64,000 nucleotides of DNA from a candidate division CPR3 bacterium GWF2_35_18 (lineage in GTDB: Bacteria > Patescibacteriota > CPR3 > GWF2-35-18), in the NCBI GenBank assembly GCA_001771135.1, contig MESW01000009.1, forward strand, positions 23,436-87,435, in the 5' to 3' direction. The first letter of the stretch is position 1; every line of letters starts with the position of its first letter. A program made the translations under genes and the position numbers. Below are positions 1,006 to 54,100 of the stretch, piece after piece. The notes under the pieces were generated by a model, which saw nothing but the letters and a program-made list of their open reading frames with translations, was not told the origin of the DNA and ran no database searches.

Positions 1006-1059
1006 AACTTGCAAAGACACATTCCATCGTTTACTATACTACCCTTAAAATATAATCTT

Positions 1060-8100: not shown

Positions 8101-10231
8101 TTCCAATACCCACATTCCCATCTTTATCTAAAACCATTTTCGTAGACACCGCAGCAGTACCGCTCGCTGTCCCAAATTCTAATCTTCCATAAGGATGTAC
8201 GGCATCAAAATCACTCTGTGCTATAACTCTTGCATATCCAGCCACATTCGAACCTGTTAATGATGTATCGTTAGAATAAAAATCTAATTCTCCTATCATT
8301 TGACCAATTCCGACGCCAGTATCAGTACGTTGAAGAGTCAAAATTGGAGATGAGCTACCTACATGCAGAATTGAAACAGCATTTTCAATACCAATACCAA
8401 AATTTCCACCACTTTCTATAATTGCTTTCTGTGCACTTCCAATAGTTGTCCCAGTACCAAAAACTAGATTACCATTTGAAGCATAATAACTTAAATAATA
8501 ATTTTGAGCTTCTCCATCAAAAATTATTCCAGTATCCTCTGCCCCATTGTCACCCAAAGTCAGGAATGGAGTCGTTCCTCCTATTTGAAGCTCTGTAGAA
8601 GGATTTGTTGTTCCGATCCCCACATTACCAGCAAAATATGAATTTGATGTTGCTGCAGAATAAATTGCATAACGATTCGTTCCAATATCAATAGAAGAAT
8701 GTAAATATATACCATACGAATTATCTACTGTTCCCCCATTTGAATAACCGTTAAGCAGTACTCCATACGCATTATTTATCGTTCCGCTAGAGTTTCCAAT
8801 CGATCCACGTAATAACGCTGCTTCTGCAATTGTTCCTCCACCAGAATTATTCATTTGCGCCCTATAATTATATGCTGAAGCTACATAACCAGATCCATAA
8901 TTGCTAAACATAGAGCTATTACCATATCCAACCGTTGCAATATTTCCATAATTAAACACCCCTGATGATAATCCATACATCCAATTTACGGTTCCATCAT
9001 TGGTATTTATTGATCTACTTGATATTCCAGTCATTCCATGTTGCGTATCTGTACCTGTAAATTCATTCACAAGTTGCAAACCTGTAACATAAGGAAAGCC
9101 AACCGTATCTCCCTCTGTTACGTTAGTATGTAAATAACTGGAATAACTTGATATATTACCATTTGTTATTCTCTCTAAATGAAACAATGATGTAGGGTTC
9201 GTCGTTCCAATCCCCACATTGTAACTTGTATCATCAGGATAAAGATTTGATCCCGAAAGTGTCCAAGGTCCTCCAGTCGAAGAGACATCTGTCCAGGAAG
9301 CCACTCCAGATCCATCGGTAGTTAAAACATATCCACTAGAAGCTCCTGACGCCATAGTAAGTGCTGTGATATCTACACTCCCTCCAGAAAGAGATCCTGT
9401 AACATTCCCGGTTAAGTTCCCGGAAAAAGAGGTCGCGGTAATACTTCCCCCATTGGTAAGATCATTGGTTCCGAGATTAATATCTCCACTCATCGTTCCT
9501 CCAGAAAGAGGTAGATAGTTGGAAGCAGTAATTGTGTTAGGAATCATATTATCCGTTAAAGAGTTATTAGGAAATTTGATAGTCCCAAATACTGTCAGAT
9601 TTGTGGTAGAGAGTGTTCGAATATTGGTAATATTATGATCGTTAAGTTTCACATTACCATTAATTGTCCCTCCAATTACAGGAAAGTATTTTGAAGCCGT
9701 AATGCTATTGGGAATCATGGCGTCGGTAATAGAGTTATTAGGTAAAGTCACTATTCCTAAAGTAGTCAGGTTGTTCACAGTAAGAGAAGGGTTGCCAGAT
9801 AATCCGGTAGCATTTCCAATCAGAGACCCTGTTACGGTTCCTTCTACATCTCCAGTAAGGTTACCTTCAAACTCTCCCTGAAAAAGATCGGCGATTAAAC
9901 TTCCCCAGACCTCTAGGTCTGTGGTTACAAATACCCTTTCTCTTGATTCCAGGAAGAGGTAATCATCTGTTACAATATGCATGTGCACATCATCATAGAT
10001 CTTTGACCCCCCTTGATTCAGATTGAAAGACATATACTTACCTTGATTGAAGGTCTCTGATCCCAGAGTAACCTCTGTTCCGGAGATATTAAGGTCTCCA
10101 ATAATGGATAGCTCTTCCGTAATTGTATAAGCATTTGTGATAAGTGGATTAATTAATACAAAGAAGGTGAAAAAGAATACCAAACTTATAATTGATAGAA
10201 ATAATAGTTGCTTTTGAGACAGTGTAAACAT
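5126..10231 (-). CDS. Giant (1701 aa) secreted repeat protein with phage tail-fibre-like repeats; putative adhesin
   Basis: N-terminal signal peptide (..LINPLITNA|YT); at least 11 dispersed copies of the motif GNVGIGTT(N/S)Pxx(K)L(H/E/D)V; N-terminal tandem repeats containing PLSGGTMSG and LTGNVTGSLSGG, typical of tail-fibre/beta-helix proteins. Confidence 0.7.
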   Translation of the reverse strand: MFTLSQKQLLFLSIISLVFFFTFFVLINPLITNAYTITEELSIIGDLNISGTEVTLGSETFNQGKYMSFNLNQGGSKIYDDVHMHIVTDDYLFLESRERVFVTTDLEVWGSLIADLFQGEFEGNLTGDVEGTVTGSLIGNATGLSGNPSLTVNNLTTLGIVTLPNNSITDAMIPNSITASKYFPVIGGTINGNVKLNDHNITNIRTLSTTNLTVFGTIKFPNNSLTDNMIPNTITASNYLPLSGGTMSGDINLGTNDLTNGGSITATSFSGNLTGNVTGSLSGGSVDITALTMASGASSGYVLTTDGSGVASWTDVSSTGGPWTLSGSNLYPDDTSYNVGIGTTNPTSLFHLERITNGNISSYSSYLHTNVTEGDTVGFPYVTGLQLVNEFTGTDTQHGMTGISSRSINTNDGTVNWMYGLSSGVFNYGNIATVGYGNSSMFSNYGSGYVASAYNYRAQMNNSGGGTIAEAALLRGSIGNSSGTINNAYGVLLNGYSNGGTVDNSYGIYLHSSIDIGTNRYAIYSAATSNSYFAGNVGIGTTNPSTELQIGGTTPFLTLGDNGAEDTGIIFDGEAQNYYLSYYASNGNLVFGTGTTIGSAQKAIIESGGNFGIGIENAVSILHVGSSSPILTLQRTDTGVGIGQMIGELDFYSNDTSLTGSNVAGYARVIAQSDFDAVHPYGRLEFGTASGTAAVSTKMVLDKDGNVGIGTTSPLSQLYVDQGITGGTPGNDRGISVLRAGTPISVGRLFVDANDRFVIGTNSYSSINIVGKNVGIYSSPPSYRLDVNGETTDSVARFYNTDDLAQILISDNDTTGYWGVKDNSAFFGLNSGLSNNNFTITSSGNVGIGTTNPTAKLHILGTTDTQQLIVTANGTQTANILEWQNSSGTPLGYVNNTGRLFLNLGTDITNQFIGSLAGNTTTTGTGLIGIGHKALNVVTNGESNVAIGSYPLSAVTSGDDNIGIGYRPLYTLQTGSNNIALGSSALYQNISGGSNVAIGVGAGYSNLGSGSVFIGTSAGSAETGSDKLYIENSNSVSPLIWGDFANDLVSFNGDVGIGTTSPSGLQVNQNVLTTAQNISNFRGGIVSNNPYLILEETVVGSQFYIYKSGAAQAFARNATGDDIYISAAGYIGIGSNNPGSLLSVDGNVAIGSNYDVLTAPADSLIVQGNVGIGATAPSYPLTVISSVNTLASFTGSSETSKLALTGSRYAGADKTQIDFGWGTTVTSRIESNLMGPAETNMVFYTTQSSAITKRMILDYTGKLGVGNINPSQLFDVNNNFVVTSTGAVGIGTTSPNHKLDVVGNVGVSAGGYLNFGSTDGESGYGIRDNAGTIEYKNSAEEWTALDGGSSYTAGDDLDLNVAEFSLEDDVDVSTLRASSASGLQIFDDGGNLGLFIEDGGYVGLGTSSPSQPLHIVAAGYDPIVFLDAPASVSPSDANSPALAQSIPASNQTDWSNPQNVYSSNNVYTSSTMPTGYTTEYLKITDFGFTIPADATINGVYVEFERYASGSGVTDQSVMLVVDDVYSGNDLQTDLEWGITDPNDYTGYGGSSNLWGVVGLTATQVNNSTFGVAIRARDDGGGNRTAYIDHVRITIYYTPSTGTNWVMGGDITDRSFKISMSSGFGTNDYFMISANGNVGIGTTNPETKLEVNGGIKPISVTADPCGSGYPEGTIFYNDTGNYMCYCDGTNDVQLHSPATACF

Positions 10232-10295: not shown

Positions 10296-11405
10296 TTATT
10301 CGCGTTCGAAGCGGAAAAGTCTTAGGGCTAAAGTGATGGAAATTATCAACCATCCACCCATAAAAAGAAGTTCTGTTTGAAGCTCAAAAAGATTCGCATC
10401 CTGCAAGGCGATTTTTCGCAAGGCTTCAATAAAAGGAGTAAGAGGTAAATAAGAAACGACATTTTTTATCACATCTGGTAAAGCCTCTTTCGAAAAGAAA
10501 ACGCCCGAAAGAAACATCATCGGCATCGAAACAACTTGAATCATTCCTTGAGCGGCATCCACGGTTTTGGCGACACCAGCCACCGCAAACCCTAAGCTTA
10601 AAAATATTAACTGCCCCAACAAACCGATAAAATAAAGATAAAAAATATTTCCAAAGATATGAACTTTGAAGATAAAAAGAGAGATCAAAATTATCAGAGT
10701 CATTTGGATCAAACTGATAAGAAGATTGGATAAAACAAAAGCCAACAGAAATGACCTTGTCCGAAGAGGTGTAGACATGAGCTTTCGTAAAGTATGTTTT
10801 TCACGAAAAGAAACAATACTCATAGCGATTCCAAACAATCCACCTTGCATCAGAGACATTCCTATTATTCCAGGAACTAGAACATCTAGATAATTAATAT
10901 TCTTGGATTCGATCTCCTGTTTTTCATAGGAAAAAACTTGAGGGGTTTGGAAAATCTGAATATTCATTCCAGACATAAATTGTTCAAGTAATCCAAAAAC
11001 AATCCCGTTTAACTGCACATTACTTTTGTCGTAAAATACCTGAATCGGCTCCACGGCAACACGAGAAGGTCCAGATTCGGTCATTTGTAAATTAAAATTC
11101 TGTGGAATTATGAAGACAAAGTCAAGATCTCCATCTAAAACAGCATTTTTCGCTTCTTCCTCATTTTGATAGTTATCGTCTATTTTCAAAACTTCAACTT
11201 TTTTTAAATTATCGACAAAATCTTTTGAGAATTCTGAATCAGCATTATCTATCAAAGCCACATTTGAGACACCCATCTTATCAAAATTAAAAAGTCCAAA
11301 AATCAGAATAAACATTATCGGAAAAAAGATCATCCAAAAAAGGGTATCCTTTTGCCTTAAAAACATTTTGATTCTGGCAATAAATAATTTCCAAAAAGAC
11401 TTCAT
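10296..11405 (-). CDS. ABC-2 type transporter permease
   Basis: N-terminal TM, ~190-aa extracytoplasmic domain, then 5 C-terminal TMs; directly downstream of an ABC ATPase with a 2-nt gap. Confidence 0.7.
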   Translation of the reverse strand: MKSFWKLFIARIKMFLRQKDTLFWMIFFPIMFILIFGLFNFDKMGVSNVALIDNADSEFSKDFVDNLKKVEVLKIDDNYQNEEEAKNAVLDGDLDFVFIIPQNFNLQMTESGPSRVAVEPIQVFYDKSNVQLNGIVFGLLEQFMSGMNIQIFQTPQVFSYEKQEIESKNINYLDVLVPGIIGMSLMQGGLFGIAMSIVSFREKHTLRKLMSTPLRTRSFLLAFVLSNLLISLIQMTLIILISLFIFKVHIFGNIFYLYFIGLLGQLIFLSLGFAVAGVAKTVDAAQGMIQVVSMPMMFLSGVFFSKEALPDVIKNVVSYLPLTPFIEALRKIALQDANLFELQTELLFMGGWLIISITLALRLFRFERE

Positions 11406-11407
11406 TG

Positions 11408-12205
11408 TTACTCCCTTAAACTTTTCCCAGTAAGATTTAAAAAAACATCCTCAAGATCAGCAAGCTGCCGGACTCTTTCTTTTTTAAATCCAGACTTCAA
11501 TAAATTTTCAATTAATTTTTGTGGGGTATCCAAAGTGATAATTTTACCCTCATCCATAATGGCCACTCGGTCACACAGAACCTCTGCTTCTTCCATATAG
11601 TGTGTAGTTAATATCACAGTTTTTCCTCTTTGTTTTAGCTTTTTGATTATTTCCCAGGTATGACGACGGGCTTGCGGATCAAGTCCAGTTGTAGGTTCGT
11701 CAAGAAAAATCACCTCTGGATCATTTACCATAGCTACTCCAATTGATAATCTCTGTCGTTGTCCACCTGAAAGCTTCTTAACCAAAGTATTTTTCTTCTC
11801 CTGTAAATCAAAATCATCTATTATTTCTGCTAAATCTTTCTGATACTTGTAAAATGAAGCAAAAAGATCCAGAGTCTCACAAACTGTCAGCTCTTCAAAA
11901 AATGCCGATGACTGTAATTGCACTCCAATTCTTTCTTTTAACTCTTTGATATTTGTACGAACATCAAATCCTAAAATCGAAATTTCTCCATTACTGATAC
12001 TCCTTAAGCTTTCCATCATTTCCACCGTTGTAGTTTTCCCTGCTCCATTTGGACCCAGTAGACCAAAAACTTCGTTTTTGTAGACCTCAAAGGAAATCCC
12101 TTTTACGGCTTCGAGCTCACCGTTATATTTTTTATGCAGATCTTTTACTTTGATAACAACTTCTTTTTTCATATTAACTATTACTAAATAAAGATAAGAA
12201 AACAA
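11408..12205 (-). CDS. ABC transporter ATP-binding protein
   Basis: Walker A GPNGAGKTT; signature LSGGQRQRLSIG; Walker B IFLDEPTTGLD; true start probably MKKEVV at 12172. Confidence 0.9.
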   Translation of the reverse strand: MFSYLYLVIVNMKKEVVIKVKDLHKKYNGELEAVKGISFEVYKNEVFGLLGPNGAGKTTTVEMMESLRSISNGEISILGFDVRTNIKELKERIGVQLQSSAFFEELTVCETLDLFASFYKYQKDLAEIIDDFDLQEKKNTLVKKLSGGQRQRLSIGVAMVNDPEVIFLDEPTTGLDPQARRHTWEIIKKLKQRGKTVILTTHYMEEAEVLCDRVAIMDEGKIITLDTPQKLIENLLKSGFKKERVRQLADLEDVFLNLTGKSLRE

Positions 12206-33445: not shown

Positions 33446-34552
33446 TCACTCAGTAACAATTTCCATACTACCGGTTCCAATATCAACATCAAATTCAACT
33501 TTATAAGTAGAGCTATCAAACTTATCCGAAATATAGTTACCATCACCTTTGATTTCCGTATCATTTAACTCAATTTTCCCTGTTCCAATTTCGTATTTTA
33601 ACTTCAATTCTGTATTTTTTGGTAAGGTAATTTTGGCCGAACCAGTCCCAATCTTAATTGTGATTTTAGAAGATGGCAAAGCATATTGCCCCAAATTAAA
33701 ACTAATTGAACCAGTACCAACTTCTGCGTTTAAGGTATTTAAATTCATCTTATCAAAATTGACAGTTCCCTTTCCCGTACCAAGATCAATATTAATATCG
33801 GTAGGAATCCCAGTTTGCCCCATACTAAAATCGTATTTTACCTTGTTGCTATCAAATATGCGTCCGAAGAAAAAGACCCCTGATTCCGTGGAAAAATCTA
33901 ATGAAAGAACTCCATCTTTGAATCTTTTCTCCAAACTTGGTTTTCCAAAATCATCATAATAACTAGACGTAATGTCCAAATAATTATAGGTGTCATCGTC
34001 CGTAATACTAAACTCCGAGACTCCTATATCTACGGTTAATTCTCGACTAAGCACTCCTTCGTAAGCATCTTTAGCAACAGTGATTTGATCCTGTTTTAAT
34101 TCCTGTTCGGAAAGGTTAAAAACACTATTTTCCGGCCACCAAGAAAATCGATTATGCATGTAATTTTCTAACTGACTATTTACCGATGATAAAGATAAAC
34201 AAACAATAATCGTAATTGTTGCCAAACCTAAAATCGCTACAAGCCATTTTGCAATAAAAGATTTTCCCAAGACTATCTGTAATCCGCCTAAAATCAGAAA
34301 TACCGGCCAGAATCTCCACAATGTTCCCCAAACAGACCAAGGTAATATATTAAAGTTATTCAAAAGAAAAATTACGCCCAAACCGATTAAGATAAAAGCC
34401 CCAAAAGGATTGCTTCCATGATCTTCTTTAATATAATGGATCTCTTTCACAAACTGTTTGTCTTCTTTTTGTTTATCATTTTGTTTACTTTCTTTAACTT
34501 CTTCTTTTTCTTCAGGTTGAATTTTTTCCTCTGTTTGTTTTTTATTTACCAT
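33446..34552 (-). CDS. LiaF-like / DUF4097-like membrane protein (Lys/Glu-rich N-terminus, 4 TM, C-terminal beta-rich GTG-repeat domain)
   Basis: C-terminal repeats IGTGSISFN, IGTGSAKITLPKN, IGTGKIELN, IGTGSMEIV; start taken at MVNKKQ (TAATG overlap with the PspC stop). Confidence 0.5.
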   Translation of the reverse strand: MVNKKQTEEKIQPEEKEEVKESKQNDKQKEDKQFVKEIHYIKEDHGSNPFGAFILIGLGVIFLLNNFNILPWSVWGTLWRFWPVFLILGGLQIVLGKSFIAKWLVAILGLATITIIVCLSLSSVNSQLENYMHNRFSWWPENSVFNLSEQELKQDQITVAKDAYEGVLSRELTVDIGVSEFSITDDDTYNYLDITSSYYDDFGKPSLEKRFKDGVLSLDFSTESGVFFFGRIFDSNKVKYDFSMGQTGIPTDINIDLGTGKGTVNFDKMNLNTLNAEVGTGSISFNLGQYALPSSKITIKIGTGSAKITLPKNTELKLKYEIGTGKIELNDTEIKGDGNYISDKFDSSTYKVEFDVDIGTGSMEIVTE

Positions 34553-35055
34553 TAGTTTCTCCTCCCTAGAATTAAAAATCCTAGAATTATTAAACCTAGA
34601 GGCCATAAATGCCAAACATTAATATGGAGAACTCGGAAAAAACCAAAATTATCAAATAGAAAAAGTAGTCCTATTACGATTACGATAATTCCCCACCAAA
34701 TGCGTGATTCATCTTTTTTGGCTGACTTTTCAACGTTTTTGGCGAATTTTTCTGCTTCTCCAGCTATTTCTTCTACGTTTTTTTCAATTATTTTTTCAAC
34801 ATCGCTATTACTTGCTGTCTCGGAGGGTAAAATCACCCAAAGGATTATATAGACTAGAACCCCCGCTCCACCCGCTAGGACAATCAGAGCAAATATTAAT
34901 CTCACAATACTAGAATCAATATTGAAGTATTCAGCAATTCCACCACAAACACCCCCAATCATCTTATCTTTTTCTGACCGGCAAAGCCTTTTTGAGCTTA
35001 CAGTCTCTTTATTATTATTCACATTTTCTTGTGACTCTTTTGTATTTTCCTTCAT
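34552..35055 (-). CDS. PspC-domain membrane protein (phage-shock/envelope stress)
   Basis: PspC motif MIGGVCGGIAEYFNIDSSIVRLIFALIVLAGGAGVLVYIILWVILP. Confidence 0.75.
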   Translation of the reverse strand: MKENTKESQENVNNNKETVSSKRLCRSEKDKMIGGVCGGIAEYFNIDSSIVRLIFALIVLAGGAGVLVYIILWVILPSETASNSDVEKIIEKNVEEIAGEAEKFAKNVEKSAKKDESRIWWGIIVIVIGLLFLFDNFGFFRVLHINVWHLWPLGLIILGFLILGRRN

Positions 35056-37174: not shown

Positions 37175-40100
37175 TTATTCTCCAAATAACCATCCAAAAG
37201 AACGACGCAAAGATTCAAGGACTAACTCTAATATATTCTCTGCTGGTTCATCCGTAACTACGATATTATTATCAGAAATCGTTAGATTTCCGGCACCATC
37301 TTCGGAAAGAATCCGAAAATGATAACCCTGAGATGGATTCAAATCCGGAATTATTATAAGGTGAGTTGTAACTAGATTTGAATCTTCTTTAGTCTTTTGA
37401 GAATAAACAGTCTTTGAACCAATACCTTCTCCAATACCTAAATCATATTCTATTTGACTGCTTGCAAGCTCATCTGTTTCCCAACCAATAATAAGTTGCG
37501 CTGTTGCTTTTGATCCTTGTCCGATAATTCTAGTATCTATCGTAATATTTGAAATCATTGGAGGACGACTATCAATCGCAGTTGTAAAAGTAAATAGATT
37601 CGATTCTGTCTGAGATCCAAGAGAATCCCGACCATATACAATAATTTCATATGTAGTATTATCAAAAAGAGAACTGATTATTAGCTCATGATTAGTTTCC
37701 AACTTTGCCGTCGAAACTTCTTCTATTCTAGAATCGTTTCGTTTATTATAACGAATAATTCCAGTAGTAGGCACATTTGTTTGCCAAGTTACTTTAACTG
37801 TTCCCGTAGCTTTATCTTTCTGTTGTTCAAGTTCTACATTAAAAACTTTAGGATAAACCGCGGTTGTAAATAAGTGCTCTTCTCCAATCAAAGTATTTCC
37901 CTCTTCATCAATTCCTGATACTCTTAATTCATAATTACTTGCAGGAATTAATTCATCCAACCTCACTGTGTGAACAGTAATTCCGCCAACAGACATATCT
38001 TCAATAATTCTCTCCTGTCCCCCTTCAGATTTTAAATAAATCAGTGAAGTCGACGGGACCTCAGTTATCCAAGAAACGATGCAAGAACTATATTTAATAT
38101 CTGTTACTTCTAAATCGCGAATCCGAGGTAACTCACCGGTAGTAAAGGTATTATCCTCACTAAAAGAATTTTCCGTTTCATAATCAATTAAGTCAGGATC
38201 ATCTAGACTTTGAATACGATAATGATAGGTAGTTGAAGGCATTAATCCCCTAACTACAATCTCATGTTTTATAACTGGATCCCACTGTCCTTGGGTACGA
38301 GTATAAATTTCATTGGTCCCAATTTGCACAAAACTATTTGAGAGCCGATCAGTTTCCCATGTAATCGTAGCCGTCGTCGAACCAGTATTAACATGAGGAG
38401 CAATAACAATTGTCGGTGGAGTGCTATATTTACCTGTTGGTCTTCGACTCACTATTGTAGAATAAGCACTCTCTTTACCCGCATTATCTTCGGCGGTTAT
38501 CTTATATGAATAAGTAATTTCATTATCTAATCCTGAATCAAGATATCCCAAAGAAATGACCTCTGCAATCTGTTGATAATCTTCTCTCTTATTTTTACGA
38601 TAAATATTATAATGATCGATCTCTCCAAGAGCAGGAGCTATAAAACGAACTGTCAGAGCATAATCATCAAGGTCACGATTACTAGAATCTATGATAGTTA
38701 CATTTGTGGGAATTCCTGGAGCGATTGTATTAGCAGTAAAATCAACAGAAGCATAATTGTCATAGTTGAAATTTCCGGCACTATCAATCGCTAACACATA
38801 GAAAGTATTAGTACCTTGCTGTGTTGCATAAGGACCTTCTGGTAGTTCTGTATCTTCTATTTCACTTATATTATTTTCATTTGGTTCTTGATTAATAGAA
38901 TAATAATATGAACTAATAACAACGCCAATATCACTCGGAGCATTCCAAGAGAAAGAAAAACTGTTCTGATTATTTGAGCTTGGTGTTACCGTTAGATTTG
39001 TCGGAGCTGAAGGAGCGTCAGAAGTCGTAAAACTATCTTCTTCAGAATAAGCTACATTGTTATCTTCATCCTCACAGCGGATACGATAATAATAAAGGGT
39101 GTCACGTTTTAAACCCACAACTGTTACTTCATGAGCAACAGCCTCTTCTCCTTTACCTTGTTCCCAATAAGCATCATTTTGATTCTCACGATATTGCACA
39201 TATCCTTGACATTCGCGTTCCATAGTCCAACTTATAGTAGCAGATAGAATATGTGTTTCAACCGATGGCGAAATAAGTATCTCAGGTGGGGTTGTGTACC
39301 GACCGGTTGGAATATCGGATACGACAGAAGAATATGCACTTTCGGCTTGAGCATTATCTTCAGAGGTAATTCGATAATAATAAGTAACCGTATTACTTAA
39401 AGTGGTATCTAAATAACCAGTGCTTTGAGTAGTTGCTATATTAGAAAAATTAATTCCATCCGTCGAGCGATAAATATTATAATGCTCTATTCCCGACCCT
39501 ATATTAATAGGAGCTTCCCAAGTCAAAGTAAGTTGATATTTTTGAGTCTCACGATTAGAAGAATCTGTAATCTGAACATTCGTTGGGATTCCCGGAGCGC
39601 TAGTTTGAGCTTCAAAAGTTTGAGATCCGTAAGCATCAAAGTTCACATTTCCAATATTATCTTCGGCTACTATATAAAAAGTATTAATGCCTTGCTTTGT
39701 AGCAAGAGGTAAAGGTCCAATTGTTCTCGTTGCCGTTTCACTTATGGTTGTTTCGGTAGAGTTATACGCGTCTGGTTCTTCGTTAACACTGTAGTAATAT
39801 TTTGCGATTGTACCCAAATATGTTGCTGGCTCATTGAAACTCACCGTAAAACAGTTATCCAAAGAACTACAATTAGTATCTTCTATTGTATCAGCTGGAG
39901 TAATAACAATATCCAAAGGAGCAGAGGGAGCAGAAGCATTGTAATAATAGTTCACCTGGGCATAACTAGAATTTAAATTTCCGGCATTGTCTTTTGCTCG
40001 AATGTAAAAAACATTTTCTCCATTTTGATAAGAAGGAATATTGGCAATTGAAGTTACTTCCAAACATTGATCATTATAATATTGACTCTCTGAATCGGCA

Positions 40101-43100
40101 GTACCGAGTTTATAACAATATCCCCAGACCCCTGAATCTAAATCTGATCCTGACGGCCAATAAAAGTCAAAAGAATTTACAGAAGAGTAACCTACCGGAT
40201 TAACAGAAACTACAACCGGATTTATCGGTTCTGATTGATCAAAATGATAAGTCCATAAAGTTTCCGCCAGGCTTACTGAACCAGCATTATCTTTAGTTTT
40301 TATTCGTAAATAATAAATTCCGTCTTGATCTAAAGCAGTCTCTGGAGGAAGCTGAAATGAAACTTCTCCCGAAACTGGATCTTCGACAAAAGTACCAGCA
40401 ATTTCTGGATCAGCAGTTTCGTTCTCTCCAAAATATACATAATAACCATCAACACCTGATGGACCTTCCCCACTATCACTAGCTCCACCTACTTCTCCAG
40501 ATCTTGGCCAGGTAAAATAAGGACGACTACTATTAGCCCAATAATCATTTACAAAAACACGTTCTTTTGTATCATCATAAAAAGCAGAAATATCCGTAGG
40601 ATTTGTAGGAGCCAAATTATCGGGAGTGTAATTAAACCTTACTCCAGTTAAAGAAGGAGATTGGTAATTACCTGAAGAACTAGTATAAACTGCTTTAAGA
40701 AAAATAAAACGATGAGGATCAGATTGAATTTCATTACCAGAAAGAGATAAATAATCTCCCTCACTACAGGTATCGGTAATAAAATTTTTGGTACAAGTGG
40801 AAACAGCTAGACTTCCATCATTCAAAGTCTGAGTTAATGCAATATCATCACCAGTACTCCAATCGGAAACCGCAGTTAGATCAATTTGACCACTGTAATA
40901 TGTTCCCGTATCTTCATATCTACCAATAACATCCGCCTGACTATGTGTCAATAATCCCTGATAATATAAATCTGTAATCTCTGAAGCAGTTAAAGCTGAA
41001 TCAAAAACACGAAGATCGGATAATACAAAATCTCCATTGTTACTTCCATAACCTATGGTTATGCTTTGAGTGTAATCATTTCCAGACACATAGTTTCCAC
41101 TCGTTCCAACTACGTTATTTACATAAACTTTTAACATATTTCCTGTTGCTGACCAAGTTCCCACTACATGAGCCCACCTATCCTGAGTAAAACCACTACT
41201 ATTTAGTAGTGATGATGAATATGTATTATTGCTATCCAACCTTCCATAACAACCATGGACTGTTTCGTAATATAACCCCAAATTCATGTTTGTCCATGTA
41301 GGATCTGTGCCATTAACTCTCAAAATTGTAAATTTTCCTCCGTTACCATGAACCGAACAAGAAACATTCAACTTGATCCAAGCGCTAATAGATCCTTCAT
41401 TTTTATTTATATTAGTATTTGGATAAGACAGAGCAGCCGATGTTCTGGTACTTGTACTATCATGAGTCGTACCCGTCCAAGCATAACCAGTGCCGAAAGA
41501 ACCATCAGCATATGATGTCGTAAATCCTAACTGTTCTAGCTGTACTCCATCCACATAAATAGTTTTTCCTGCCATAACTTGAACTCCATAATAAAGAGAA
41601 GCATCAATGGTAGTTGTTGAGTAGGTTAACCTCCACCAACCTCCTCCCATATCTGTGTAAGTACTAGGAGTAACAATAGTGCTTCCAAAATAAAGATTCG
41701 CCACAGTTGCATCTACTGTCCCTCCGATACTCCCACTAGTTCCGTTATACACATAAGCACTGAGAGTATGAGTAGCAGTAGAATTTGGATCAATTGAGAT
41801 TGCATATTCATCTTGAAAATCTTGACCAATGAGTTTAACTGACTTACTCCCAAATTTGTAGTACGGTATAGTTGTATTTTCGCTAATAGATGAGGTGACA
41901 AAAGAAGAAAAAGTAGCATCAGCCTGTTGACCACCTGTCGAACTTGATCCCCAATATGCGGTATTGGGAACATTTGTAAAATTTGTCGGATCATCTAGCA
42001 CAACACGTTCAACACCATCAACCCATAACGACATGCGAGTTGAAGAATATCTCAATTCCATATGATAAGTTGTTCCCGCTATAATCGATCCGTATGCATT
42101 CCAGGCAACTCCATAATCGGTCCCATCGCTATCAACACTAAATATCTGCAATGAAGAATTATCACTCCAATAAATTCCAAACGAATTACTCGCATCAGCT
42201 TGAAATCGGACAACATAGCACACACCACCAAAGCTATACATTGTTCCCGCACTATGTCTTGGCGTGTATTTAAATTTCACAACCCCATTTGTAGCAGAAA
42301 GTCCTGTAATTGGTTGAGTAAGTGTATCCGCTCCATCCACTCGAAGACCAGTAGTTTCAGTGGAATTTGTTTGATTTGCCGGCGTTACTGTTAACGAGAC
42401 ATCGGTTAATGACACCACGTATGTATCATCCACATAAGCTACAATCGAACCGTTATACCACTTCATGAAGCCAAAATACGTACCCAAATAACTTGATGAG
42501 TTTTTTACTACCCGATGGTACACACTCCAATCTCCAGTTATATAGTGCGAAGGACCTGTTTGATTTACCTCTGATAAATGCTGTAGGGGTTGAGTGTATT
42601 GGTTATACATAAATCCAAAAGTATCCCCTGATTCTCTTTTCCCCCAACCTCCTTGAGCATAAAATTTTCCTCCAGAATATGAATGGTTAAAATACACCCC
42701 ATCACTTGTCTCATCACCTGTGAATTTTGCTGCACTCAAACCAGAATGCACTATCGTAGTTTCTTGCGTTACTTCACCCACTTCAGCTCCAGAATTAGAC
42801 CATCCGGTCGGCAGCCAGGGATCACCTGATCCAGATTCAAGAGAAGGATTACTAACTAGATTTGTATACACCTCTACTTGATGCCAGTAACAAGTGTCTC
42901 CTGTGGATGAATCGTTATACAATTCAATTATTTCCGAAGTATTTCCCGATGGTGCTTCCCATGTAAATAAAAGCACGTCCGGATCTGTTCGAGTTGAGGT
43001 ATTTGTTCCTGCCAAACTGGTTATCAACACTCCATTGTTATTATTCCAAACCTTAATAGTTGGCATACAGGATCCATCTGAGTGAGCAATAGCCCGAATT

Positions 43101-46100
43101 ACATAATCATTTCCTTGTGCAGTAGACAAAGTGTAGCGTAAAGCAGCACTCGTATTCCCTGTCACTTTATAACCTCCAGCGTAAATTTTTTCGGATGTCA
43201 GTAGAGCAGATATATCCGTATAAGCACCATAATTACTCCATCCATCATTAGCATACGTACCATTCATCATAAATCCACCTGTATTGGTTGTAGACGTATA
43301 CAAAAGATTGGACGAATGCGGATGGCTCCAAGCGTTACCAGTACCGGTAGATAGTATGCCAGTCGAAGCATTTGTTGGAAGTGCAAAAACGACATCCCAC
43401 GATCCCGTCACCAAGGTCGGATCTTTACCTGTACCGCTGTTGTAAATCTGAGCTATCTCATCTCCATTTCCGACATCAATACCATAGGTACCATCAAACA
43501 ATGGACGACGATAAATAGTAAAACCTTCGATAATTGAACTACTTGAGTTAGAAGTACCATTAGTTCCAATTCCAATAATATTGATCGCTGGAGCTGTTAT
43601 CGTACTCGTTGATCCAAAATTATGTAAATCATTAACACTCACCGATACATAATTCGTGGCCGAAATCAAATTTTTAGTATCCCATCTAGCTATCACATTA
43701 TAGGTTGTTCCCGCAACCCAATTGGAAATATCTATATTCGAAACACTGCTACCTCCTATCGAAAAACTCAACATCCCTGCTGACGATTTCCACATTCCGA
43801 TTGTTCCTAATTGAAAATCTTGAATTAAAGCTCTTGTAACTCCATCATTTCCATTCCATTCTGGTGTAATCCAAAAAACAATACTTCCCTGATTAGTATC
43901 TATATTTGGATAAAATCTTCCTGAAATAGTTGTTCCTGGAACTATTGACAATGAATCACCACCTGAAGCGTCAATTCTATTTCCTTGCACCATTGGACCA
44001 GCAGCAAACGGACCGGTAGAATTACGCTTCGCCATATTAGGAGTAAATGTGGCTGAAGCTGTCAGATAATTAAAATATGGAGAAAACCAGTTATTATTAT
44101 AAGTAACATGTTCAAAAGAGGGATTTGTAATCAAATTCGTCGTTCCTTCTTCTAATAAAACTCCTTGATGAGAAGCATAGCTTTGTGTTGAAAGGTAACC
44201 GGTATCGTTTATAGAAGAGTTAACCCCAATTAAACCAGAGATATATTTTGCTCCACTAATCGTTCCATGATTCCCATTTCCAGAAGCATCCAGTACTTTA
44301 CCAATATTTCTAGGGTCATCACCATTTTCGTCAAAGTGGTAAAGAAGTTTCGTATTAACATCAGAAATAAGTGATCCTGTTTGTGGAATGAAGTTTGAAG
44401 TATATCGAACAGAATCAGATATTCTAAGCTCATCTACCAACATTCTAGGTCTTGCACTCCATCCAGCCATTGCAATATCGGCATTTATGCTCCACACACC
44501 TGATGCTGGTTCTGTAGCTACAAGAGTACCATTACGATATGTTCTAACTTGACTTCCATCATATACAACCGCATAATGAGCCCACTCATTAGCTAGTAAT
44601 CCAATATTGACAAATTCCGTAATACCCCCTATATCTTGTCGTAAAACCAGAGATCCCCACCAACCACAAATACCAGTTGCCCAACCAGCTCCTATAACAG
44701 ATGCGCTACCTCCTTGTGATCCATTGACACCCAAATTATTAATATTTGCCCATAGTTCGACGGTAGCAGCACTGCTTGTTGAATAACTGAATGAGTTATC
44801 AATATAATCATTCATCCCATCAAAGCTCAAAGCACTTTTACCTCCTGAATAACGAATGGCACCGGTTGCTGAAGTTGGTGTTTCTTCATTCACACAGGTC
44901 GTCGAGCCACTAAACGGACACACCAAAGTAGCATTCTTATCTCCCACCGAATACGCTCTGGTTCCTCCCGTCACCCAAGACGGATCATCAGTACCACTAT
45001 TTGAGTTGACTCCCAGCGTTCCATTAAATCCGTTTCCCGAACTATCAGTTACTGTCTGTCCCGTCCCATCATCTAATTTCCAATTCGCCATTAGATTATT
45101 CCAATACGCATCCGCTGTGGTGACATTTCGATTCATTCTCTCGGTAATCTCACTTGCGGTTAGTGCTCGATTCCATAATCTCACCTCATCAATCTTTCCG
45201 GTCACAAATTGTGATACTCCTCCTCTTGATCCAATCACTTTCATAGTATTTGTTGACACATACTCCACTGCCAATTTACTCGTCAATGTCTGAGACACCC
45301 CATCGATATAAATTGCGTGTTCGTCAGCCGTTCCGTTTTTAGTATAAGCAATGTGATACCACCTTCCCGTAGTGATCAAACCATTACCTGTCACCGCCTG
45401 ATATATCCCTGGAGTAATTACTTCAACTTGACCTGTAACATTGATCTCCAATTGCGGAATCAACCCCGTACTATTCCCCGACAAATCAATAATCGTTTGC
45501 CGCGTCAGACTGCTCACATATACCCAAGCCTCGATAGTTAAATGATTGTAATCAAACCCAAAAGCATTGTTGATATAAGCTAAATCTCCCCCATCAAAAC
45601 TTAAATACTTTTCCCTAGGAAACGACGGGGCTGTTGCTGAACTATTCCCATAGTAGATTTCATAGTTAGCATCTGAGCCGGAAGTCACAATTTGCTCTTG
45701 AAGGGGAAAAGTAATAGTGGAAGCAGTGGTATTACAGTTAGTTACTGACCTGGGAATTTCCACTCTGGTATTAGCTAAGGCTGTAGCAACAAAGACTACT
45801 CTCAAATCATCACAATCATTTTGAATTCTACCCGCATCATAAAGCTCTTTTGTATTTAAAATGAGTTGAACGGTTGAACCAACTAGTAAAGTATTTCCGG
45901 AAATATTCTGCAAAGTTGCTTGCCTTCTGGCTACATAATCTTCATTCCACCAACCTTCAATAGCAGAAAGCCTCACTTCAGTATCTCCCACTACTACGTT
46001 TACAGTGTTAGCATTATCATAACCATCGCTAAAACTTCTTTGAGTAGGCATAATGAATGACGTCTCTTCTAAACCTAAAATCGAAGGATTCAGTTTGTGA

Positions 46101-46297
46101 CTAAAAAATCTATATGCGGTCGTCGTTGAAATAACAAATAGCAATATCGTAAATAACCAGGTTAAGAAGGCAGTTTTTTTACGAATTTTGATAGAATTTA
46201 ATTGTGGGAATTTACCACCTAAAAAAGATGTGCTTTTCCAAGAAAATGGACAAGAAAAATCTATATTATGATATATTTCTGTTATTTTAAATTTCAT
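37175..46297 (-). CDS. Giant (3040 aa) membrane-anchored extracellular protein with LamG/concanavalin-like and fibronectin-III-like domains
   Basis: N-terminal TM (aa ~45-66); LamG-type motifs DEVRLWNRALTASEI (aa ~370), VDELRISDSV (aa ~622), LSDLRVFDSALTASEITDLY (aa ~1760); FN3 / purple-acid-phosphatase-N-like repeats from aa ~1900-3000 (e.g. YYYRITSEDNAQAESAYS, YHYRIQSLDD). Confidence 0.8.
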   Translation of the reverse strand: MKFKITEIYHNIDFSCPFSWKSTSFLGGKFPQLNSIKIRKKTAFLTWLFTILLFVISTTTAYRFFSHKLNPSILGLEETSFIMPTQRSFSDGYDNANTVNVVVGDTEVRLSAIEGWWNEDYVARRQATLQNISGNTLLVGSTVQLILNTKELYDAGRIQNDCDDLRVVFVATALANTRVEIPRSVTNCNTTASTITFPLQEQIVTSGSDANYEIYYGNSSATAPSFPREKYLSFDGGDLAYINNAFGFDYNHLTIEAWVYVSSLTRQTIIDLSGNSTGLIPQLEINVTGQVEVITPGIYQAVTGNGLITTGRWYHIAYTKNGTADEHAIYIDGVSQTLTSKLAVEYVSTNTMKVIGSRGGVSQFVTGKIDEVRLWNRALTASEITERMNRNVTTADAYWNNLMANWKLDDGTGQTVTDSSGNGFNGTLGVNSNSGTDDPSWVTGGTRAYSVGDKNATLVCPFSGSTTCVNEETPTSATGAIRYSGGKSALSFDGMNDYIDNSFSYSTSSAATVELWANINNLGVNGSQGGSASVIGAGWATGICGWWGSLVLRQDIGGITEFVNIGLLANEWAHYAVVYDGSQVRTYRNGTLVATEPASGVWSINADIAMAGWSARPRMLVDELRISDSVRYTSNFIPQTGSLISDVNTKLLYHFDENGDDPRNIGKVLDASGNGNHGTISGAKYISGLIGVNSSINDTGYLSTQSYASHQGVLLEEGTTNLITNPSFEHVTYNNNWFSPYFNYLTASATFTPNMAKRNSTGPFAAGPMVQGNRIDASGGDSLSIVPGTTISGRFYPNIDTNQGSIVFWITPEWNGNDGVTRALIQDFQLGTIGMWKSSAGMLSFSIGGSSVSNIDISNWVAGTTYNVIARWDTKNLISATNYVSVSVNDLHNFGSTSTITAPAINIIGIGTNGTSNSSSSIIEGFTIYRRPLFDGTYGIDVGNGDEIAQIYNSGTGKDPTLVTGSWDVVFALPTNASTGILSTGTGNAWSHPHSSNLLYTSTTNTGGFMMNGTYANDGWSNYGAYTDISALLTSEKIYAGGYKVTGNTSAALRYTLSTAQGNDYVIRAIAHSDGSCMPTIKVWNNNNGVLITSLAGTNTSTRTDPDVLLFTWEAPSGNTSEIIELYNDSSTGDTCYWHQVEVYTNLVSNPSLESGSGDPWLPTGWSNSGAEVGEVTQETTIVHSGLSAAKFTGDETSDGVYFNHSYSGGKFYAQGGWGKRESGDTFGFMYNQYTQPLQHLSEVNQTGPSHYITGDWSVYHRVVKNSSSYLGTYFGFMKWYNGSIVAYVDDTYVVSLTDVSLTVTPANQTNSTETTGLRVDGADTLTQPITGLSATNGVVKFKYTPRHSAGTMYSFGGVCYVVRFQADASNSFGIYWSDNSSLQIFSVDSDGTDYGVAWNAYGSIIAGTTYHMELRYSSTRMSLWVDGVERVVLDDPTNFTNVPNTAYWGSSSTGGQQADATFSSFVTSSISENTTIPYYKFGSKSVKLIGQDFQDEYAISIDPNSTATHTLSAYVYNGTSGSIGGTVDATVANLYFGSTIVTPSTYTDMGGGWWRLTYSTTTIDASLYYGVQVMAGKTIYVDGVQLEQLGFTTSYADGSFGTGYAWTGTTHDSTSTRTSAALSYPNTNINKNEGSISAWIKLNVSCSVHGNGGKFTILRVNGTDPTWTNMNLGLYYETVHGCYGRLDSNNTYSSSLLNSSGFTQDRWAHVVGTWSATGNMLKVYVNNVVGTSGNYVSGNDYTQSITIGYGSNNGDFVLSDLRVFDSALTASEITDLYYQGLLTHSQADVIGRYEDTGTYYSGQIDLTAVSDWSTGDDIALTQTLNDGSLAVSTCTKNFITDTCSEGDYLSLSGNEIQSDPHRFIFLKAVYTSSSGNYQSPSLTGVRFNYTPDNLAPTNPTDISAFYDDTKERVFVNDYWANSSRPYFTWPRSGEVGGASDSGEGPSGVDGYYVYFGENETADPEIAGTFVEDPVSGEVSFQLPPETALDQDGIYYLRIKTKDNAGSVSLAETLWTYHFDQSEPINPVVVSVNPVGYSSVNSFDFYWPSGSDLDSGVWGYCYKLGTADSESQYYNDQCLEVTSIANIPSYQNGENVFYIRAKDNAGNLNSSYAQVNYYYNASAPSAPLDIVITPADTIEDTNCSSLDNCFTVSFNEPATYLGTIAKYYYSVNEEPDAYNSTETTISETATRTIGPLPLATKQGINTFYIVAEDNIGNVNFDAYGSQTFEAQTSAPGIPTNVQITDSSNRETQKYQLTLTWEAPINIGSGIEHYNIYRSTDGINFSNIATTQSTGYLDTTLSNTVTYYYRITSEDNAQAESAYSSVVSDIPTGRYTTPPEILISPSVETHILSATISWTMERECQGYVQYRENQNDAYWEQGKGEEAVAHEVTVVGLKRDTLYYYRIRCEDEDNNVAYSEEDSFTTSDAPSAPTNLTVTPSSNNQNSFSFSWNAPSDIGVVISSYYYSINQEPNENNISEIEDTELPEGPYATQQGTNTFYVLAIDSAGNFNYDNYASVDFTANTIAPGIPTNVTIIDSSNRDLDDYALTVRFIAPALGEIDHYNIYRKNKREDYQQIAEVISLGYLDSGLDNEITYSYKITAEDNAGKESAYSTIVSRRPTGKYSTPPTIVIAPHVNTGSTTATITWETDRLSNSFVQIGTNEIYTRTQGQWDPVIKHEIVVRGLMPSTTYHYRIQSLDDPDLIDYETENSFSEDNTFTTGELPRIRDLEVTDIKYSSCIVSWITEVPSTSLIYLKSEGGQERIIEDMSVGGITVHTVRLDELIPASNYELRVSGIDEEGNTLIGEEHLFTTAVYPKVFNVELEQQKDKATGTVKVTWQTNVPTTGIIRYNKRNDSRIEEVSTAKLETNHELIISSLFDNTTYEIIVYGRDSLGSQTESNLFTFTTAIDSRPPMISNITIDTRIIGQGSKATAQLIIGWETDELASSQIEYDLGIGEGIGSKTVYSQKTKEDSNLVTTHLIIIPDLNPSQGYHFRILSEDGAGNLTISDNNIVVTDEPAENILELVLESLRRSFGWLFGE
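38140..39940 (-). repeat. Tandem duplication of a ~300-aa module (FN3-FN3-PAP_N-like) inside the giant gene
   Basis: Protein aa ~2120-2425 and ~2426-2720 align end to end (APSAPLDIVITP.. / APSAPTNLTVTP..; TSAPGIPTNVQITDSSNRE / TIAPGIPTNVTIIDSSNRD; YTTPPEILISPSVETH / YSTPPTIVIAPHVNTG); nt coordinates derived from aa index. Confidence 0.7.
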
Positions 46298-47243: not shown

Positions 47244-47633
47244 ATGAAAAAATTATACCTTTTTGTCATTCTCATCATCATCGTCATCGTTGGCACGTAC
47301 ATTCTAATGAATCAAGGTAAAGACAAAAATACTTCATCGGAAAATAATACCACTCAAAATGAAAGCACCCAGAGTGCTACAGATAATAAAAAATTCACCT
47401 TAGAAGAAATCGCTACCCACAATTCCGAAGATGATTGTTATCTAATAATTGAAGATAAAGTGTACAATGTAACATCATTTATTTCTTCACATCCGGGAGG
47501 ACAAGCAATTCTTCAAGGCTGTGGAACTGATGCGACCACTCTTTTTGAGACAAAACCAATGGGCAGTAATACTCCCCATTCACAAAGTGCTCGAAATTTA
47601 TTACAATCATATTATATTGGTGATTTAATTTAA
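47244..47633 (+). CDS. Secreted or membrane-anchored cytochrome b5-like heme-binding domain protein
   Basis: N-terminal hydrophobic anchor; FTLEEIATHNSEDDCYLIIEDKVYNVTSFISSHPGG ... TPHSQSARNLL matches cyt b5 (HPGG and second His); GGAG RBS. Confidence 0.75.
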   Translation: MKKLYLFVILIIIVIVGTYILMNQGKDKNTSSENNTTQNESTQSATDNKKFTLEEIATHNSEDDCYLIIEDKVYNVTSFISSHPGGQAILQGCGTDATTLFETKPMGSNTPHSQSARNLLQSYYIGDLI

Positions 47634-52900: not shown

Positions 52901-54100
52901 CTATTCAGCCGGAAGAAGAAAAACTACAGATGTCGTATTATGAAAACCACTGAACTCTCCTTTGACGTAACAAACCTCTCCGTATGTTTCAAATCCAGAC
53001 AGCGGAATTTTGCCCAAAACTTTTTTGAATTCATCGACAGCCATATAAAAATCATTACCTAAAATGAGTCCCCGACAAACACAATCAAAAATTAAAGCTC
53101 CAGCAATAGCAGTATTTTCTGGAACTTCGGAAAGAGCTAGACTCACAGCCTTATTCGCTGATTCTGTTTGTTTCTCTTTGACGCTTTTCATAATGTTAAA
53201 AGATAATCCTTGCGGAATCGTACAAGCGAAATTAAGAGAACCATCCTTATTTTTACTTAAAGGAACTCTAATTTTATAATCATCATTTCCCATAGGAATT
53301 CCCATTTCGTAACAGATAAGATGATTTCCAATCTCTGTAGTTTCATTTAATTTATGAACATCGATTCCCTTTTTACTAGCATCAACGGCAGTTTTTTCCT
53401 GCCATACTTCCCATGCCGGACGATTATCGATTTCAAAAAGAACGCTACCTTGTGATTTGGTTACTTGTAAGGTTTCGCTCAAAACTATATGTCCATGTTT
53501 TACCCCAGTATAGAAAGGAGTTTTTGAATCAATCACACAAATACTAACGGCATCTGCCAAAACTAAATCATTACAGAAAACGAATGTTTGCTTAAATTTT
53601 AGATCATCTCCTGCAGCGCCACCTACCAATTTGGTCTCAATATCTAAAGCGTTTACGGCAGCAATTGCAATCTCTTCACCTTTACCAGCCAATCCATCCA
53701 TAAAAATAATTGCTGCTCGATGAGGATATTCTGCATTTTTTGGTGATACCTGAGAGACAATCTCTTTCATCACTAGATTTTCGTTTTCTTTAACTCCGGA
53801 GGCTGAAGCCGTAGAGAATTTCATTTTGTCAGATGAAATTAAAGTTACCGCAACACTTCCATTTTCCACCGCTTCTTCATTGAATTCTCCCCCGGTGGAA
53901 CATCCTATTAACGGTGCATTCTGAGTAAATTTTCGAACAGTAGCAACAACATCTTCATAGTTATAATTAGTCGCACTATAAACAATGGTAAGATCTATTC
54001 TTTGTTCTCCCAATTTCTTTTTAGCAATTTCTACCGCTTCTTGCGCCACCTTTATTCCATCCTCACCTTTTGAAAGTCCAGTAGCCATTTTTGTACTCAT
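52901..54100 (-). CDS. FIST-domain (FIST_N/FIST_C) signal-transduction-associated protein
   Basis: 399 aa; LIGCSTGGEF and overall FIST-like pattern; weak motif-only call. Confidence 0.5.
   Translation of the reverse strand: MSTKMATGLSKGEDGIKVAQEAVEIAKKKLGEQRIDLTIVYSATNYNYEDVVATVRKFTQNAPLIGCSTGGEFNEEAVENGSVAVTLISSDKMKFSTASASGVKENENLVMKEIVSQVSPKNAEYPHRAAIIFMDGLAGKGEEIAIAAVNALDIETKLVGGAAGDDLKFKQTFVFCNDLVLADAVSICVIDSKTPFYTGVKHGHIVLSETLQVTKSQGSVLFEIDNRPAWEVWQEKTAVDASKKGIDVHKLNETTEIGNHLICYEMGIPMGNDDYKIRVPLSKNKDGSLNFACTIPQGLSFNIMKSVKEKQTESANKAVSLALSEVPENTAIAGALIFDCVCRGLILGNDFYMAVDEFKKVLGKIPLSGFETYGEVCYVKGEFSGFHNTTSVVFLLPAE

Follow-up and report, generated by a model that had tools for sequence, protein, structure and literature searches.

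Type VII ATP-binding cassette (ABC) systems combine a permease of shared architecture with a separate ATPase and a partner encoded alongside, as in FtsEX-EnvC/PcsB, LolCDE-LolA, MacAB-TolC and YbbAP-TesA. Members of this fold are known to act through extracytoplasmic partners (PMC12646458). Giant surface proteins with FN3 and concanavalin-type domains are already accepted as a feature of candidate phyla radiation (CPR) bacteria: reports on Vampirococcus (PMC8080830), the large exoproteins of Patescibacterium danicum (PMC11809585) and Absconditicoccaceae (PMC13059738) present such proteins of CPR/Patescibacteria and DPANN as presumed adhesins for host attachment. Here we analyse a gene for a 3040-aa protein with LamG and FN3 domains (the giant) in a 64,000-nucleotide stretch of contig MESW01000009.1 (the window, meaning the whole of this stretch), together with the genes for an ABC ATPase and a MacB/FtsX-type permease that follow it. 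We propose, with a probability of roughly 0.55, that the giant is a lectin-like surface protein, carrying an ancient module copy, whose C-terminal stalk end would be coupled to a dedicated type VII ABC system. The proposal draws on sequence and on analogy with the described systems.

The locus shares with type VII systems the permease architecture, the separate ATPase and the adjacent partner gene, and Bacillus subtilis YtrEF is the nearest system that has been solved. It differs from them in the presumed partner, which is a 1000-3500-aa FN3-stalk protein with a tail made of an FN3 domain and a helix, and not a coiled-coil hydrolase activator, lipoprotein chaperone, membrane-fusion protein or lipase. 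The cassette contains no adaptor (membrane-fusion protein) gene, and the interaction is here proposed from gene order only. With the CPR giants it has in common a very large size, export, adhesion-type FN3, concanavalin and LamG domains and a small low-GC genome. However, the present family is defined by its C-terminal tail and MacB-type ABC pair and not by its head, and the searched passages of the reports on CPR giants mention neither. Our literature search likewise found no link of CPR giant proteins to a MacB/FtsX-type ABC system or to the tail in the portions of the sources available, an absence that is not proof. What is new here is the tail-ABC cassette as a variant of the theme of a type VII ABC system plus partner.

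Two further systems invite comparison. Giant adhesins of type I secretion systems (LapA/RTX) are similarly repetitive, have a conserved, uncleaved-looking C-terminal element and are encoded alongside an ABC transporter. Unlike these, the giant has an N-terminal Sec-type segment, its ABC permease has the MacB/FtsX and not the HlyB-type fold, and membrane-fusion and outer-membrane components are missing; Patescibacteria are taken to be single-membraned. We rejected an assignment to the RTX adhesins of type I secretion because the giant has no GGxGxD motif and no RTX match in Pfam, and the permease is FtsX-fold. Sortase-anchored Gram-positive adhesins (microbial surface components recognizing adhesive matrix molecules) have the same polarity, with an N-terminal signal, a ligand-binding head, an Ig/FN3 stalk and a C-terminal attachment element. 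In contrast to them, the giant lacks a C-terminal transmembrane segment and a positively charged tail, and has instead an amphipathic helix. Sortase anchoring was rejected, as there is no LP.[TSA]G anywhere in the giant and no C-terminal hydrophobic segment.

The C-terminal tail and the ABC cassette

The giant gene, reported by the initial annotation from the sequence alone, forms one uninterrupted reading frame, and the exact protein sequence was also recovered from a 112.5-kb contig of a Joint Genome Institute metagenome (P0001) in a protein collection search. The protein comprises an N-terminal segment, a head of ~1800 aa made of LamG, concanavalin-like and other beta-sandwich domains, and a stalk of ~1200 aa with about a dozen Ig/FN3/PAP_N-like domains (Table 1). 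The N-terminal membrane anchor of that annotation corresponds to a hydrophobic segment that may be a signal peptide or a signal anchor. It is the only strongly hydrophobic segment in a Kyte-Doolittle scan with a threshold of 1.6 (a weak stretch at aa 534-552 surfaces only at 1.2), and relatives of the giant have a transmembrane segment or a canonical signal peptide at the matching position. The giant is probably an exported, multi-domain cell-surface protein of a probably ultrasmall (Patescibacteria-type) bacterium, and the earlier adhesin-type interpretation gains support, as giant exported LamG/FN3 proteins are of a kind usually read as adhesins. The GC content of the giant gene is 0.37-0.41 (window positions 38001-46000) versus 0.30-0.34 in the surrounding genes, which could reflect a Gly/Thr/Ser-rich composition or a foreign origin.

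Table 1. Coordinates of the giant gene, its parts and the downstream ABC pair in the window (residue numbers refer to the giant).
Feature	Position	Strand	Residues	Basis and remarks
Giant gene	37175..46297	minus	3040 aa	ATG start, stop codon included; open reading frame list and translation
N-terminal hydrophobic segment, signal peptide or signal anchor	46100..46180	minus	40-66	Kyte-Doolittle scan
LamG domain 1	45146..45586	minus	238-384	PF13385, E 9.7e-23; ends DEVRLWNRALTASEI (aa 370)
LamG domain 2	44378..44830	minus	~490-640	Second PF13385 stretch, approximate bounds; ends DELRISDSVRY (aa 622)
Most conserved part of the head, no Pfam family	43208..44377	minus	641-1030	Identity to orthologues, alignment A2
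LamG domain	40976..41443	minus	1619-1774	PF13385, E 8.2e-13; ends SDLRVFDSALTASEI (aa 1760)
Module A, Ig-like + fn3 + Pur_ac_phosph_N-like FN3	39059..39973	minus	2109-2413	Self-BLASTP, Pfam; extra, more divergent copy
Module B, same three domains as module A	38126..39058	minus	2414-2724	Orthologue of the lone module in the nearest relatives
Two more FN3/PAP_N-like domains	37568..38125	minus	2725-2910	Pfam: fn3 2726-2802, PAP_N 2830-2906
Terminal FN3 domain, family hallmark	37253..37567	minus	2911-3015	W[EDT]TDE..SQ motif; AlphaFold2 and Foldseek
C-terminal amphipathic helix ENILELVLESLRRSFGWLFGE	37178..37243	minus		AlphaFold2 tail model; hydrophobic moment
ABC ATPase, 274 aa	36333..37157	minus		PF00005, E 9.4e-33; starts 17 nt after the stop of the giant
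Type VII (MacB/FtsX-type) ABC permease, 406 aa	35105..36325	minus		PF12704, 1.5e-12; PF02687, 1.8e-18; transmembrane scan

A feature of the giant that the initial annotation did not record is its conserved C-terminal tail. We modelled the last 130 aa with AlphaFold2, using an alignment of 14 sequences (A1) with the window protein as its first row. The model, with a predicted local distance difference test (pLDDT) score of 89.7, is an FN3 beta-sandwich followed by a helix at residues 112-124, and its best Foldseek matches are generic FN3 domains. The helix has a hydrophobic moment of 1.68 and a mean hydropathy of 0.46, which is too little hydrophobicity for a transmembrane segment. Its consensus in alignment A1 is L..L...FG[WF]L, with the L, F, G and L columns invariant or nearly so, and the window protein ends in FGWLFGE. 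All relatives with an FN3 stalk, including those with a Kelch head, terminate in VVVTP....A.D....NL...FG[FW]L. Giants that have the LamG head in common but no stalk (LamG-only giants) are without the FG[FW]L ending.

The two genes downstream of the giant encode a complete ABC pair. The ATPase has intact Walker A (GPSGCGKST), signature (LSGGQQQ) and Walker B (LFLDEPT) motifs. The permease has transmembrane segments at 19-49, 261-297, 313-355 and 366-394, with an extracytoplasmic domain of ~210 aa between the first two; this MacB_PCD plus FtsX architecture, with four transmembrane segments and a large extracytoplasmic domain, is that of type VII permeases. Its relatives in PDB are YtrF (9o9x, 2.4e-28), 5xu1 (Spr0695-type), MacB and LolF/C/E, which place the permease in the type VII ABC fold. 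A tripartite MacAB-type efflux pump was considered and discarded, since no gene for a membrane-fusion (HlyD/MacA-like) adaptor lies beside the pair in the window or in five orthologue contexts. On the same strand, 49 nt past the permease, are PspC and LiaF-like (LiaF-TM plus LiaF_C) genes (33446-35055, minus strand). None was found in the five orthologue contexts inspected, so these genes are probably not part of the cassette.

The protein collection search recovered about 20 full-length relatives of 2500-4000 aa and 31-46% identity, among which P0012 alone carries a source name, Patescibacteria. The order giant, ATPase, permease is preserved in all five orthologue contexts (P0015, P0013, P0012, P0008 and P0002), and the other flanking genes are unrelated. 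To survey the family, we searched one genome per species (GTDB) with alignment A1, which gave at least 502 confirmed loci with the terminal FN3 domain and C-terminal helix, and we inspected the best 80 of them. Where the titles of these 80 loci name a lineage, it is mostly Patescibacteria. The tail match ends 0-16 aa before the stop codon in all 80. Among the 71 loci with at least 3 kb of downstream sequence, 66 continue on the same strand with genes for both an ABC ATPase and a MacB/FtsX permease, which mostly begin -60 to +170 nt from the stop of the giant; ATPase and permease are fused in about a dozen of the 71. The window has the same arrangement: a terminal FN3 domain with the W[EDT]TDE..SQ motif, a helix near the stop, and then ATPase and permease. 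As a negative control, none of three LamG-only giants, which have the head without the tail, has ABC neighbours.

The association was also examined in reverse, with a permease alignment (A3) that retrieved 80 metagenome loci; the sequence upstream was long enough in 48 of them. Among these 48, each of the 11 low-GC relatives of at least 30% identity is preceded by a tail-bearing open reading frame that ends at the start of the ATPase. At higher GC and the same identity, such a frame is present in 3 of 24 loci (GC 0.47-0.51); the tail-less higher-GC loci mostly have a GC of 0.55-0.67 and match in the FtsX domain only, with L095 and L098 as full-length matches. Permease relatives below 30% identity have no tail-bearing frame (0/13). 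The type of tail varies with the type of permease: 24 of the 27 loci whose permease has ~400 aa, the class of the window, carry a GW[LIM]F tail, and inspection showed none among long or fused permeases. The closest permease relative outside the genome of P0015 (P0106, 50% identity) lies behind a 1003-aa FN3-only protein (in L089) that has the same tail, ending in ETFGWLFGE, and the ABC pair. A Kelch-headed giant in L002 has an ABC pair of its own. The stalk and the tail, and not the head, therefore travel with the pair.

Two or three paralogous cassettes of giant, ATPase and permease are present in many genomes, often next to one another (L013, L002, L014, L047, L050, L059, L068 and L070); paralogous cassettes are also found in L009/L010 and L023/L068 (each in the same metagenome-assembled genome) and in L020/L073 (on the same contig). 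Some contigs with the cassette bear titles such as 'uncultured Gammaproteobacteria', 'Pseudomonadales', 'Bdellovibrionales' or 'Limisphaerales' (L026, L029, L033, L036-L038, L041, L042, L045, L050 and others). These titles outside Patescibacteria probably reflect placeholder labels or mis-binning, and not a true presence there. In L006 (597-25078) and L007 (2525-17182), LamG-only giants with the head of the window protein form tandem arrays. Small PF05635 (23S_rRNA_IVP/bAvd-like four-helix) genes, of a family known for accessory proteins of diversity-generating retroelements, sit between these giants.

Head, stalk and the module pair

Laminin_G_3 (PF13385) matches the giant in four stretches with 147.8 bits against a gathering cutoff of 27.6 (whole-protein E 3.4e-43). 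To place the domains, the protein was rescanned against Pfam as ten overlapping 400-aa pieces, which gave per-segment E-values of 9.7e-23, 2.6e-24 and 8.2e-13 and a weak fourth stretch (2.1e-4) at aa ~1364-1463. The initial annotation had listed at least three LamG-like motifs containing ALTASEI. Four LamG stretches and four end motifs are indeed present (at aa 370, 622, 924 and 1760, the third being the divergent EGFTIYRRPL), but only two of the motifs contain ALTASEI. The LamG-rich head, carried on the FN3 stalk, is presumed from its domain content to bind glycans or other ligands on another cell.

The segment scan matched no Pfam family at aa ~650-1360, a region that overlaps the most conserved part of the head (aa 641-1030). 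This part starts with a LamG-like prelude, LLYHFDENGDDPRN, followed by NLITNPSFE, and alignment A2 reveals a near-invariant block within it, GNGDE...DPTLVTGSWDV...AWSHPH...TGGFMMNG. Its identity to orthologues is 52-69%, versus ~40% elsewhere in the same proteins, and in P0002 the block is present twice. Sequence searches of Pfam, NCBIfam and PDB returned nothing for aa 641-1030, and a PDB search with the whole giant gave no match. An AlphaFold2 model of aa 641-1310 from an 8-sequence alignment is all-beta, and with a pLDDT of 51.6 it is a poor model that was left out of the fold search.

The C-terminal array of FN3 and purple-acid-phosphatase-N domains claimed in the initial annotation is confirmed by Pfam, with 69.3 bits for fn3 (PF00041, cutoff 25) and 84.2 bits for Pur_ac_phosph_N (PF16656, cutoff 30; three stretches). 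In the segment scan these domains span aa ~2249-2906, and those of module A lie at aa 2249-2321 (fn3) and 2352-2425 (PAP_N). The same annotation described two modules in this region, at aa ~2120-2425 and ~2426-2720, as collinear paralogs of high identity that arose by a recent duplication. We compared 300-aa chunks of the giant with the rest of the protein by BLASTP, masking the query region. The stretch aa 2109-2400 aligns with aa 2414-2689 at 43% identity over 292 aa with an E-value of 5e-67, far beyond chance, so the collinear paralogy is real; weaker echoes link aa 1972-2176 with 2384-2573 and aa 2565-2699 with 2847-3000. The identity, on the other hand, is not high. In a global alignment the modules are 45.7% identical in amino acids and 54.9% in nucleotides, and 47.5% of the fourfold-degenerate sites in identical residues agree, versus 34% expected from composition. 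Synonymous sites between modules A and B are near saturation. The off-diagonal line predicted at an offset of ~900 nt is clear at the protein level and a mere trace at the nucleotide level, where self-BLASTN of the gene gives a single 156-nt high-scoring pair (68.6% identity, 876-nt offset). Tandem Repeats Finder found no repeat in the gene. An assembly artefact was rejected as the source of the duplication, since the copies are merely 55% identical at the DNA level.

Module B is 55% identical to the single module of P0015 and 53% to that of the L089 protein, and module A is 44% identical to both. In a neighbour-joining tree on Kimura distances with 300 bootstraps, a simple distance method, module B pairs with the single module of P0015 (bootstrap 0.94) and module A falls outside, in a weakly supported position (0.43-0.58). 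The two copies are as far from each other (45-46% in amino acids) as each is from the orthologues of other genomes; together with the saturated sites and the grouping of module B with P0015, this refutes a recent duplication. The suggestion that the protein is subject to modular expansion is also weak: all 24 giant homologues checked at the protein level have one module per gene, and a tandem pair is absent from all 75 module-bearing loci, which leaves the window protein alone with one. Second module matches in those 75 loci are at least 4 kb off, within neighbouring paralogous genes. The alignments thus point to a duplication that is real but ancient, with an extra copy unique to the lineage of the window within our sample. 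Module A would be the old extra copy and module B the one orthologous to the single module of the relatives.

How module A arrived is less clear-cut. A paralogous giant gene, in the same genome or in another lineage, may have donated it through ectopic recombination, with no tandem duplication in place; we consider this possible but less likely than not. Consistent with an insertion, module A is roughly as similar to module B as to the closer orthologous modules (~40-45%), and the regions around it are more similar to P0015 (aa 1801-2108, 54%; module B, 55%; tail, 58%) than module A itself (44%). Adjacent paralogous cassettes, common in these genomes, would provide substrates for domain exchange between giants and hence donors for module A. 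Yet the 170 loci that we fetched contain no relative of module A above ~44%, its uncertain position in the tree bears on this origin too, and an old duplication in place fits equally well if copy A was lost in the lineages of P0015 and L089 or changed faster. In either case the duplication matters little. It is an old, fixed gain, in a single lineage, of ~305 aa with three stalk domains and gives no evidence of ongoing copy-number variation; variants in module number are not expected, the copies being too divergent for ready recombination. The earlier interpretation therefore stands for a giant LamG/FN3 protein with true paralogous modules, fails on their recency, and had missed the ABC pair and the conserved tail, which say more about the workings of the giant than the duplication does.

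Proposed coupling of the giant to the ABC pair

According to our proposal, the giant would be the extracytoplasmic partner of a type VII ABC system, in the manner of EnvC/PcsB with FtsEX, LolA with LolCDE, TolC with MacAB and TesA with YbbAP. The terminal FN3 domain and helix may dock on the extracytoplasmic domain of the permease. This docking would fix the base of the stalk to the membrane, with the lectin-like head pointing outward, in the polarity of C-terminally anchored Gram-positive adhesins. ATP hydrolysis might then be passed mechanically to the giant and result in anchoring, conformational change or release. Several points weigh against this proposal. The ABC pair is absent in 5 of the 71 loci and a gene of ~2.9 kb intervenes in 3 more, and the cassette counts cover only the best 80 of the 502 loci. 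The covariation of tail and permease is confounded with phylogeny, as it roughly separates Saccharibacteria-titled from Microgenomates-titled genomes. The contact between tail and permease is taken purely from gene order, and ligand binding by the head purely from domain families; the head block at aa 641-1030, which matches no known family, could be catalytic. Finally, if the N-terminal segment stays in the membrane, both ends of the giant would be membrane-proximal.

The same genes could be read as a machine for release or maturation and not for anchoring. The ABC system would then extract a membrane-embedded part of the giant, either the N-terminal signal anchor or an in-plane C-terminal helix, from the outer leaflet in the way of LolCDE or YbbAP, and the giant would pass to the wall or the surface layer, or else be shed. 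LolC/E/F are among the PDB relatives of the permease, extraction of the YbbAP type is established for the fold, the C-terminal helix is amphipathic as in in-plane membrane anchors, and no cleavage site is obvious in the N-terminal hydrophobic segment of the giant. However, Kelch-headed relatives with cleavable-looking signal peptides have the same tail, and the one in L002 its own ABC pair, which argues that the N-terminus is not the common element. We regard release as rather unlikely, although extraction of the helix and docking of the helix would look alike in the evidence at hand.

It seems very improbable that the giant and the ABC pair are neighbours by coincidence or loose linkage, the former being a passive adhesin exported by Sec and anchored through an N-terminal transmembrane segment, and the latter a pump for efflux or for resistance to antimicrobial peptides that happens to share its operon. 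The annotation of relatives by their sources as 'ABC-type antimicrobial peptide transport system permease' speaks for this reading, as do the envelope-stress genes (PspC, LiaF-like) that come next in the window and the nearest solved relative, YtrF, which belongs to an operon induced by cell-wall antibiotics (PMC12772383). But the adjacency persists in 66 of 71 loci across many Patescibacteria-titled groups while other neighbours change, it tracks the tail and not the head, it recurs in the reverse direction in all 11 low-GC relatives, and PspC/LiaF-like genes are confined to the window among the contexts inspected. Another possibility concerns the head, which might be an enzyme or a toxin-delivery module that degrades glycans or the cell wall of a host, as proposed for giant proteins of predatory bacteria, with LamG only binding the substrate. 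The stretch with the strongest conservation across the family (aa 641-1030, with invariant GNG.E, DPTL.TGSWDV, AW.HP and TGGFM.NG) lies outside all Pfam families, and such conservation is more typical of an active or specific binding site than of a spacer. No catalytic family was returned by Pfam, NCBIfam or the PDB sequence search, though, the secondary structure is predicted, at low confidence, to be an all-beta sandwich, and the FN3-only and Kelch-headed cassettes suggest that the head is exchangeable. We therefore hold a catalytic head to be quite improbable and prefer a lectin-like head on a stalk whose tail would be coupled to the ABC pair.

Other genes of the window and implications

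A second large open reading frame of 1701 aa (5126-10231, minus strand) has an N-terminal signal-like segment, a G/S/T/N-rich composition and a Cys-containing C-terminus. It has no Pfam match and is without the FN3-helix tail, and immediately upstream of it are the genes of an ABC-2 permease and its ATPase (10296-12205, minus strand). The window also encodes a cytochrome b5-like haem-binding protein (47244-47633, plus strand), a FIST-domain protein (52901-54100, minus strand) and a RimO-type methylthiotransferase (1009-2343, plus strand). The nearest relatives of RimO reach no more than 57% identity, and the best ones with a name, which are Chloroflexi, ~40%, so the organism appears to be poorly sampled. 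Its placement as Patescibacteria-type is indirect and comes from the nearest relatives of the cassette. Rfam and tRNA scans of the window gave no matches, and a scan for promoters and terminators told little in this AT-rich DNA, with 67 promoter-like sites versus 55 expected.

Patescibacteria account for much of the diversity of bacteria and are believed to live in attachment to other cells; to our knowledge, apart from type IV pili and some adhesins, little has been established on how they attach. A far-reaching and, in our estimate, unlikely extension of our proposal is that the cassette represents an undescribed surface apparatus of ultrasmall episymbionts. Here an ABC mechanotransducer would use ATP to actuate, tension, retract or release an FN3-stalk giant through its FN3-helix tail, and exchangeable heads (LamG, Kelch or none) would set what is grasped on the host. 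The three-gene cassette itself, an FN3-stalk protein with the tail followed by an ATPase and a permease in hundreds of species, is a genetically testable candidate for a machine of surface display or attachment. With it, the short list of partners for type VII ABC mechanotransducers would gain a new type.

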